Positions 2,333 through 2,894 of a stretch of DNA of 64,000 nucleotides are shown here, piece by piece. The DNA comes from Escherichia phage Pu-Krd-SF3, in the sequence record PQ249397; one strand, 5' to 3'. Both the position numbers and the translations under genes were made by a program. Each line of letters starts with the position of its first letter. Within the stretch, counting starts at the first letter, position 1. The notes under the pieces are model-generated. The model was not told the origin of the DNA. It searched no databases and saw nothing but the letters and a program-made list of their open reading frames with translations.

Positions 2333-2359
2333 GCCCCGACCGAAAGGTTGGGGCTTTTT
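2333..2359 (+). terminator. rho-independent terminator hairpin (gccccgacc-GAAA-ggttggggc + T run)
   Basis: 9-bp GC-rich stem, GAAA loop, TTTTT tail; a near-identical copy lies at 2868-2894. Confidence 0.6.
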
Positions 2360-2397
2360 GGCATAAATAGATGAGTTAATTAACACAGGAAATAACA

Positions 2398-2859
2398 ATG
2401 AAAACTTATGCTCAATTTTTAATGACCGAAGCATCCGCTTCAGATGTTCGCGCTGTAGCAACTGCTGCTATTAAAGCTGGTAAATATTCTTATAAAGATG
2501 CTTCTGACGAATCTCGGTACAAGTTCTATGACGATATGAGAGCTGAAGGCTTTGTGGGTAACTATGTTACCACCGCCTGGAAAAGCCTGGTTGCTACTGG
2601 TGCGGCTTTCGAAAAACCTTCTGGTAAACCTGCTCCTAAGGCTGACCCTAAAGCAGCACAAGAAAAAAATATTGCTAAAGGAATTATCTCTAGGTATGAA
2701 GCAATTCTTAAAGAACTTTTGATAATTAAGACCGAAGGCCAGAAACTTGCGCGAGCTTATAGTTTCAAAGATAATCCACATGCTCATGACCTAGAGTATG
2801 TTGAAGACCTCCAAAAAATCATCAAAGACCGCATTTGGTCTGCTAAGCAAATTAAATAA
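2398..2859 (+). CDS. internal-protein-like protein with capsid-targeting-like N-terminus (MKTYAQFLMTEA…)
   Basis: ORF track; N-terminus resembles the T4 IPI/IPII/IPIII capsid targeting sequence MKTYQEFIAEA; SD upstream. Confidence 0.75.
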   Translation: MKTYAQFLMTEASASDVRAVATAAIKAGKYSYKDASDESRYKFYDDMRAEGFVGNYVTTAWKSLVATGAAFEKPSGKPAPKADPKAAQEKNIAKGIISRYEAILKELLIIKTEGQKLARAYSFKDNPHAHDLEYVEDLQKIIKDRIWSAKQIK

Positions 2860-2867
2860 TATTTTTA

Positions 2868-2894
2868 GCCCCGACAGAAAGGTTGGGGCTTTTT
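2868..2894 (+). terminator. rho-independent terminator hairpin, second copy of the 2333-2359 element
   Basis: agccccgacaGAAAggttggggcttttt; one mismatch relative to the upstream copy. Confidence 0.6.

Follow-up and report, generated by a model that had tools for sequence, protein, structure and literature searches.

The DNA analysed here is a 64,000-nt stretch of the genome of Escherichia phage Pu-Krd-SF3 (sequence record PQ249397; the whole stretch is referred to as the window), a Tequatrovirus in which two near-identical terminator-like hairpins, A and A', flank ipX1, a single internal-protein-like gene located downstream of the stable RNA gene rnaC. Across T-even phages, ipX1 and its neighbour ipX2 are present, absent or replaced by divergent alleles, and the junctions read between these states fall within the hairpin and its short tail. 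We consider hairpin-mediated cassette shuffling, in which the hairpin is one half of a composite linker, to be the best explanation for the organization of this locus, with an estimated probability of about 0.78.

The first-pass annotation of this DNA had described a pair of 27-nt hairpin repeats bracketing the open reading frame (ORF) at 2398–2859. The bracketing agrees with the coordinates, as A ends 38 nt upstream of the ipX1 ATG and A' begins 7 nt past the ipX1 stop codon, and the repeats do exist, but they are 28 nt rather than 27 nt long and start one base earlier. The repeat unit, AGCCCCGAC[C/A]GAAAGGTTGGGGCTTTTT, is found on the + strand at 2332–2359 (copy A) and at 2867–2894 (copy A'), the two copies being 27/28 identical, and a preceding TT extends the repeat to 30 nt (2330–2359 and 2865–2894, 29/30 identical). 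When both strands of the whole 64-kb window were searched with the pattern AGCCCCGACNGAAAGGTTGGGGCTTTTT, tolerating up to 3 mismatches, these two positions were the only matches, with a C as loop base in the first copy and an A in the second. No match was obtained in 100 dinucleotide-preserving shuffles of the window, and none is expected by chance.

Copy A, analysed in a 37-nt context, folds into a 10-bp stem with a GAAA tetraloop followed by a run of five T (−20.6 kcal/mol), and A' folds into a 9-bp stem with a 6-nt loop (−16.3 kcal/mol), the sole difference between the two copies (C to A) disrupting the loop-closing C–G pair in A'. The corresponding z-scores against shuffles are −3.5 to −3.9. 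Both copies show the shape of an intrinsic terminator, namely stems of 9–10 bp containing 6–7 G–C pairs and then five T, and both are positioned on the + strand in terminator orientation, A 50 nt 3' of rnaC and A' directly 3' of the ipX1 stop codon, while no T-run follows the stem of either copy on the − strand. Taken together, these features point to A and A' as intrinsic (rho-independent) terminator-like hairpins with putative terminator activity.

A third copy of the hairpin, which was not part of the earlier description and which we call terminator C, follows ipX2, and its stem is preserved by paired (compensatory) substitutions. Its tail, GGGCTTTTTGGCAT at 3569–3582, is identical to the tail of copy A at 2351–2364. 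Within a small and related sample of 17 distinct hairpin variants, 88.8% of the cells were paired and two pairs had changed on both sides, from C–G to G–C in Mosigvirus/Dhakavirus-type copies and from G–C to A–U. The 3' arm and tail of the hairpin are nearly invariant, and the 5' arm is variable. A further hairpin-like element, AACCCCGACAAGGTTGCCGC, is located within the rnaC 3' trailer (window 2305–2324) and resembles the 5' arm, the loop and the start of the 3' arm of the hairpin (CCCCGAC..AAGGTTG). This trailer element is kept in T4 and in other genera, and it may be a decayed older copy of the hairpin or a part of precursor processing.

Using window positions 2020–4047 as query, we retrieved 769 phage records. 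Sixty of these, picked at even spacing, fell into discrete length classes, whose representatives were mapped with BLAST anchors and their junctions read. Counts given below derive from gene-only queries and from this evenly spaced search sample; of four 105-nt junction queries, the T4-type and ipX1-to-e.8 counts (158 and 361) were inflated, since pieces separated by as much as ∼550 nt are joined, and were left unused. The locus was encountered in four states. Both genes are present in the window and in about 124 records. Genomes carrying ipX1 only (RB27, RB18, QOTSP, KAW1E185 and others) read rnaC trailer, hairpin, GGTATAAATA, ipX1, hairpin, GGTATCTAGGCC and e.8, with a 35-nt direct repeat on both sides of ipX1. 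Genomes carrying ipX2 only (Pu-Krd-SF5, T4_ev151, G4498) possess a single hairpin, bordered on the left by the rnaC trailer and on the right by the flank of A' (AGTTTGAATC...), after which ipX2 follows; the succession of rnaC trailer, hairpin and AGTTTGAATC was read in the ipX2-only loci L018, L025 and L026. This is the exact product that would be expected of a recombination between A and A'. Lastly, neither gene is present in T4, T2, RB59 and others, this empty state making up about 10% of the evenly spaced sample.

The junctions themselves are of few types. The end of ipX1 with its hairpin continues either into AGTTTGAATC (ipX2) or into GGTATCTAGGCC (e.8), and the rnaC trailer with its hairpin and GGTATAAATA leads into ipX1. 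All the junctions read (three ipX2-only, more than five ipX1-only, and T4) are located in the same ∼35 nt of hairpin and tail, and the full hairpin is restored each time. The comparison with T4 defines the outer limits of the variable block. In T4, which lacks both ipX genes, the hairpin 28-mer occurs once, 28/28 identical and likewise some 50 nt 3' of rnaC; GGTATCTAAGCC... comes directly after it, and then the e.8 early promoter. In the window, the T4 post-hairpin sequence resumes past terminator C (GGCATCTAGACC...), so that the two-gene block separates exactly the two parts of the T4 junction, its stem-loop and its promoter region. This block has GGGCTTTTTGGCAT at both of its boundaries, and after GGGCTTTTTGGCAT(CTAG) the right flank of terminator C matches the right flank of the T4 hairpin. 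The post-rnaC hairpin is reportedly the terminator of the T4 tRNA operon.

Rearranged copies of the locus were also observed. Phage F26 (L024, 1860–2240) repeats the last 87 nt of ipX2, terminator C, the e.8 upstream region and the first 24 nt of e.8, with junctions off the hairpin, and phage 04086 (L023, 510–790) repeats the rnaC trailer, the hairpin and the first 114 nt of ipX1, with a junction that lies off the hairpin and contains NNN; the latter duplication may be an assembly artefact. In KAW1E185 (MK373781; L027, 3558–3592) the loop of the second hairpin is inverted from GAAA to TTTC and the stem is perfected (AGCCCCAACC-TTTC-GGTTGGGGCT), a signature of quasi-palindrome template switching which suggests that the DNA hairpin forms during replication.

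Homologues of ipX1 were found in 470 records and ipX2 in 164 records (90–100% identity), which, with about 124 records carrying both genes, amounts to some 40 ipX2-only records and some 350 records with ipX1 but without ipX2. Every pairing of an ipX1 state (leader/allele of type 1, of type 2, or no ipX1) with ipX2 present or missing, six in all, was seen. The two genes differ markedly in diversity: the identity of ipX1 alleles to the window allele is 75–99% in the gene search and mostly 60–90% across phage records, reaching at least 90% in only 21 of the 470 records, and is lowest in the N-terminal half, whereas ipX2 is 95–99% identical in 155 of its 164 records. The flanks remain 94–99% identical to the window through rnaC and hairpin A, identity drops to 60–85% immediately past the hairpin and ATAAATA, and e.8 is back at 90–99%. 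In one contig (L014), ipX1 is 92% identical to the window allele though e.8 is only 83% identical, a pattern that suggests exchange between lineages.

Related elements are encountered in other genera. Dhakavirus- and Mosigvirus-type phages carry the variant AG(C/G)CCCTTCC-GAAA-GGTTGGG(G/C)CT, which contains the compensatory C–G to G–C change mentioned above and is sited after rnaC and at the boundaries of modules that vary in order (ipX1, a 184-aa phrog_2143 gene and a 205-aa phrog_2280 gene). In RB69 (AY303349; L028, 3000–3034), the hairpin and GGCATCTA follow rI within another variable region and precede an early promoter (GTTTAC...TATAGT); this is a unit similar to the PeSL, the composite of terminator stem-loop and promoter to which we return below, at a different locus and in a different genus.

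Within single T-even records the hairpin is matched one to three times, with two matches in the whole genome of the nearest relative and one in T4. In the one record with three matches that was examined (KAW1E185), the third proved to be an opposite-strand match to the near-perfect palindrome at the same locus. The first-pass annotation had proposed that the gene between the repeats was acquired, or can be exchanged, by recombination between them, that an alignment of T-even genomes should show the hairpins kept while the ORF comes and goes or is exchanged, and that use of the same hairpin as an ordinary terminator at many unrelated sites would speak against this reading. The alignment behaves as anticipated, with four states and divergent alleles, the hairpin is confined to essentially one locus, and the exchange reading is supported by the comparative junctions, the four states and the replaced alleles.

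The window's other terminators are built on a different hairpin of the UUCG type, GGGCTTCGGCCC, which occurs in about five copies (at 4933, 32853, 36230, 41654 and 43601). Scans of IMG/VR returned five loci for the hairpin and ten for e.8. Beyond T-even phages, exact hairpin matches are few: five scattered single ones in 596 Gb of bacterial genomes and one in an unrelated IMG/VR contig. In this viral contig (IMGVR_UViG_3300032282_001984, positions 1–80), the exact 28-mer stands in tandem with a second similar hairpin at the contig end, and nothing else is common with the window. Neither this copy nor the five bacterial matches, which lie in unrelated genomes, were retained as homologues; they are attributed to sporadic convergence and are probably GAAA-tetraloop terminators.

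As to the genes themselves, ipX1 and ipX2 both begin with a capsid-targeting-type leader, MKTYxEF(I/L)xE, comparable to the MKTYQEFIAEA of the IPIII homologue encoded in the window (phrog_5341, 'internal virion protein'). The leader of T4 internal proteins ends in the prohead-protease cleavage motif (L/I)xE, and the corresponding residues are L-T-E in ipX2, M-T-E in the window's ipX1, and FLNE and LTE/LNE in longer ipX1 alleles. Both proteins match phrog_2280 over their full length, a family annotated as 'unknown function' rather than as internal protein; no match to either was found among Pfam, NCBIfam or PDB sequences, and all sources name them 'hypothetical protein'. Beyond the 12-aa leader no pairwise similarity between ipX1 and ipX2 was detectable, and a profile-profile comparison based on shallow alignments returned a probability of 17.7%; the putative paralogy of the two genes is drawn from their common PHROG. 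Judging from these features, ipX1 and ipX2 are candidate injected proteins that would be packaged into the virion.

The leader-coding 5' ends form direct repeats of their own, 30–37 nt in length and 78–84% identical (2398–2433 and 2978–3010; also at 7726, 8489, 8811 and 53911). The closest relative in the databases, Escherichia phage Pu-Krd-SF4 (PQ759884), which is 99.9% identical to the window in the hairpin region, carries one additional C behind the A7 run (window 2670) that frameshifts ipX1, annotated there as a 93-aa coding sequence, and the window ORF is intact with 153 aa. The frameshift is either a sequencing error in the deposited genome or a recent pseudogene.

Each gene is preceded by a box resembling the T4 late promoter. 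The first box is a perfect TATAAATA in 9 of 13 aligned relatives. Its ATAAATA core does not vary from genus to genus, whereas the leader behind it diverges into two unrelated types; the second box reads (A/G)ATAAATAATTAATAACC in each of the eight relatives aligned. Both boxes are putative late promoters, and no sigma-70-like −35/−10 pair was found between A or A' and the next ATG.

On the + strand, the order of the surrounding features is eight tRNA genes, a segB-like GIY-YIG gene, tRNA-Arg, rnaD, rnaC, A, ipX1, A', ipX2, terminator C and e.8 (Table 1). The segB-like gene, with a weak TIGR01453 match and annotated as homing endonuclease in relatives, is located 400 nt upstream. Rfam, run in E-value mode, reported tRNAs only and no family over rnaC, rnaD or the hairpin. 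ARAGORN predicts a tRNA-Met(CAT) where the T4 annotation has tRNA-Ile, and the window also contains a tRNA-Tyr that is not in T4 (1053–1127, 1137–1223); tRNA-Tyr and segB constitute the unit whose amplification is reported for the escape of T6 from Septu (PMC13096335). A spacer of about 140 nt separates terminator C from the e.8 early promoter, which belongs to a 78-nt early-promoter repeat (TTTTCACAAAAC-GTTTACA...TATGGTACTATACAACTATCAAC) present in four window copies (3682–3759, 18943–19020, 20382–20459 and 46467–46544).

Table 1. Features of the variable locus between rnaC and e.8 and of its flanks (window coordinates)
Feature	Position	Strand	Remarks
rnaD (T4 species 2 stable RNA)	2017..2136	+	T4 annotation transferred by pairwise alignment, 97% mean identity
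rnaC (T4 species 1 stable RNA)	2143..2281	+	T4 annotation and alignment; 3' end 50 nt before hairpin A
Hairpin A with tail, TT-AGCCCCGACC-GAAA-GGTTGGGGCT-TTTT-GGCAT	2330..2364	+	Left direct-repeat copy; terminator-like stem-loop closing the tRNA-rnaD-rnaC unit
Box CATAAATA	2362..2369	+	7/8 match to T4 late consensus TATAAATA; abuts/overlaps tail of hairpin A; 28 nt before ipX1 ATG
ipX1, 153-aa internal-protein-like gene, leader MKTYAQFLMTEA	2398..2859	+	Cassette between A and A'; phrog_2280, E 5e-52
Hairpin A', TT-AGCCCCGACAGAAAGGTTGGGGCT-TTTT	2865..2894	+	Right direct-repeat copy with one loop difference; terminator-like stem-loop
Box GATAAATA	2936..2943	+	One mismatch from TATAAATA; 34 nt before ipX2 ATG
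ipX2, 188-aa internal-protein-like gene, leader MKTYAEFLTEA	2978..3544	+	phrog_2280, E 1e-53
Terminator C, CCCTATC-TAAAT-GATAGGG and T-run	3548..3586	+	Diverged hairpin copy, 69% identity, −10.5 kcal/mol
e.8 early promoter, TTTACA-17-TACTAT with upstream TG	3713..3741	+	Fits the TTTACW-N17-TAYWAT PST/T4 PeSL consensus (PMC4122927)
e.8 homologue, 87 aa	3785..4048	+	phrog_2678; conserved right-hand anchor of the variable locus

In the model that we favour, the linker would consist of a rho-independent terminator, with a GC-rich stem, a GAAA tetraloop and a U-run, and of an abutting T4 late-promoter-type box. Copy A would represent the ancestral post-rnaC terminator-like hairpin, A' would end ipX1, and the older, diverged copy C would end ipX2, so that three linkers would delimit single-gene cassettes for leader-bearing proteins placed between the T4 stem-loop and the e.8 promoter. 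Recombination among the recurring 30–45 nt copies could then delete, insert or exchange cassettes and leave the neighbouring transcription units unharmed. Such events may take place inside a single genome or when T-even phages co-infect a cell, through the ordinary homologous or short-homology recombination of T4 and possibly via excised circles, and a circle carrying one linker that integrates into a resident linker would generate the hairpin-gene-hairpin arrangement. From the junctions we infer that hairpin homology has served as the recombination substrate. Recombination stimulated by SegB next door may raise the exchange rates of the region.

Several observations weigh against this model. 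The shared homology is short (28–45 nt), and recombination is read from junctions. We found no pair of genomes with near-identical flanks that differ by a cassette alone, and for this reason the events are all to be regarded as old, and each may have been a gain or a loss. The ipX1 allele of QOTSP is chimeric, with a crossover near position 2620 inside the gene, and the hairpin is consequently not the sole exchange point; the right-hand edge of ipX1 divergence is also softer than the left one. A second direct repeat, 36 nt at the leader-coding 5' end of each of the two ipX genes, is a possible alternative exchange substrate, and the window's own first box, CATAAATA, is one mismatch off the consensus. 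Finally, survivorship could place the surviving indel junctions at terminators under any mechanism.

In its full form, this last argument holds that indels arise anywhere, by illegitimate recombination or by homing-endonuclease-stimulated repair, and that the terminators are merely where survivors with intact units are seen. SegB is known to cause co-conversion of the T4 tRNA region (PMC2330249) and to drive a microhomology-bounded amplification of tRNA-Tyr/segB in T6 (PMC13096335), and the partial duplications of F26 and 04086 (the latter with Ns) have their junctions off the hairpin. Selection for intact units would, however, permit junctions throughout the 38–240 nt spacers, yet those we read share the same ∼35 nt, and the polymorphism extends to genomes without segB at this place (RB27); we therefore regard survivorship as an unlikely account of the locus. 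A purely duplicative history, in which ipX1 and ipX2 would be the paralogous products of an old tandem duplication and the hairpins their own terminators, kept alike by function and with no role in recombination, appears to us somewhat less likely still. It would agree with the full-length phrog_2280 match of both proteins, which extends to the 205-aa gene at the equivalent Mosigvirus-type place, with the old and diverged appearance of terminator C and its compensatory changes, and with the likeness of boxes and leaders. But the near-identity of A and A' stands beside genes that cannot be aligned past the leader and extends to the bases of the loop and to flanks that do not pair (TT and, in relatives, GGTAT), where selection on the stem alone would permit compensatory change of the kind seen in terminator C. 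It also leaves the ipX2-only, ipX1-only and empty genomes with hairpin junctions unexplained. The common PHROG and the diverged terminator C make it plausible that the array originated, far back, when a unit of late promoter, gene and terminator was duplicated in tandem, while the near-identity of A and A' beside unalignable genes and the polymorphism render duplication alone insufficient; it probably describes how the array began and is compatible with later hairpin-mediated exchange.

A more active role of the structure can also be envisaged, in which the hairpin, as a cruciform or folded strand, would be recognised by a nuclease or recombinase in an integron-like manner, with attC-like sites. 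The near-invariant 3' arm and tail next to a variable 5' arm, the loop inversion and perfected stem in KAW1E185 (suggesting that DNA hairpins form), the hairpin plus tail at a different locus in RB69, and the helper protein for PeSLs left open by Arbiol et al. (PMC2839356) could all be taken in this direction. However, no gene for a recombinase accompanies the locus, homology fully accounts for the junctions, there are only 1–3 copies per genome, and the loop inversion is an ordinary outcome of quasi-palindrome template switching, so that we consider such mobilisation highly improbable. The bolder proposal that the hairpin is a structure-specific site by which single anti-defence (internal-protein) genes are captured, excised and traded as small circles, in an integron-like array whose attC analogue doubles as terminator/late-promoter unit, is likewise very improbable. 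Overall, shuffling of cassettes through the homology of their hairpin linkers remains the explanation that we prefer.

The locus is of interest for several reasons. Internal proteins enter the host together with the phage DNA, and the manner in which genes of this kind are swapped bears on host range and on the design of phage therapy. With two cassettes, four states, at least two deeply separated classes of ipX1 alleles, a junction element of ∼35 nt and hundreds of phages, it amounts to a natural experiment, and it makes the PeSL/mini-circle model easily testable in T4 genetics. It also draws attention to two uncharacterised proteins that are candidates for injection, of which one is highly polymorphic. 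By analogy with T4 Ip1, Ip2 and Ip3, each of which blocks a subtype of the type IV restriction enzyme GmrSD (PMC12373910), adaptation to host defences is a plausible selective reason for the turnover of cassettes.

Among known systems, the T4 hairpin after rnaC is the most direct counterpart, identical to copy A in all 28 positions and at the same place; it differs in that T4 has a single copy and no cassette behind it. Integron cassettes resemble the locus in forming single-gene arrays bounded by imperfect hairpin-forming repeats (attC), but an integrase, attI and evidence of site-specific recombination are absent here, which limits the likeness to an analogy. The T-even internal-protein locus, as far as it is described in PMC4122927 and PMC12373910, both of which cite Repoila et al. 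1994, likewise contains variable sets of small genes with a common capsid-targeting leader that are shuffled among relatives. The present locus is situated elsewhere, between rnaC and e.8 instead of at the ipI locus beside 57B or at the ipII/ipIII locus (PMC12373910), and ipX1 and ipX2 belong to another family, phrog_2280, annotated as hypothetical.

The closest mechanistic precedent is the PeSL. PeSL-flanked ORFs in RB49 and phi1 recombine and form mini-circles (Arbiol et al. 2010, PMC2839356), and the model was extended to PST versus T4 together with the description of a middle-promoter variant, PmSL (Comeau et al. 2014, PMC4122927); as cited in the latter, the PeSL authors tie these cassettes to the earlier work of Repoila et al. 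1994 on shuffling at the T-even internal-protein locus. As in the PeSL system, a composite of terminator stem-loop and promoter occupies intergenic spaces of a hyperplastic region and flanks small, non-essential ORFs that are gained, lost or replaced among close relatives, with indel and replacement junctions inside the element and cassettes that would be transcriptionally insulated. The outer junction, in which the hairpin is followed after ∼140 nt by the e.8 early promoter (TTTACA-N17-TACTAT), agrees with the PST/T4 consensus. In contrast to the PeSL, the box beside A and A' is of the late type, (T/C/G)ATAAATA, instead of a directly adjoining sigma-70-like early promoter, there are 1–3 copies at essentially one locus as opposed to dozens across hyperplastic regions, and the hairpin stem is unlike the one reported from PST/T4 (AGNA-loop-TCNT). 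In RB49/phi1 mini-circles have been demonstrated, whereas the present case is known from sequence comparison. Given the PmSL precedent, a late-promoter version is a modest extension of the model, and the locus is best seen as a tidy, well-populated and apparently new example of the accessory-gene shuffling already described for T4-type phages rather than as a new principle.

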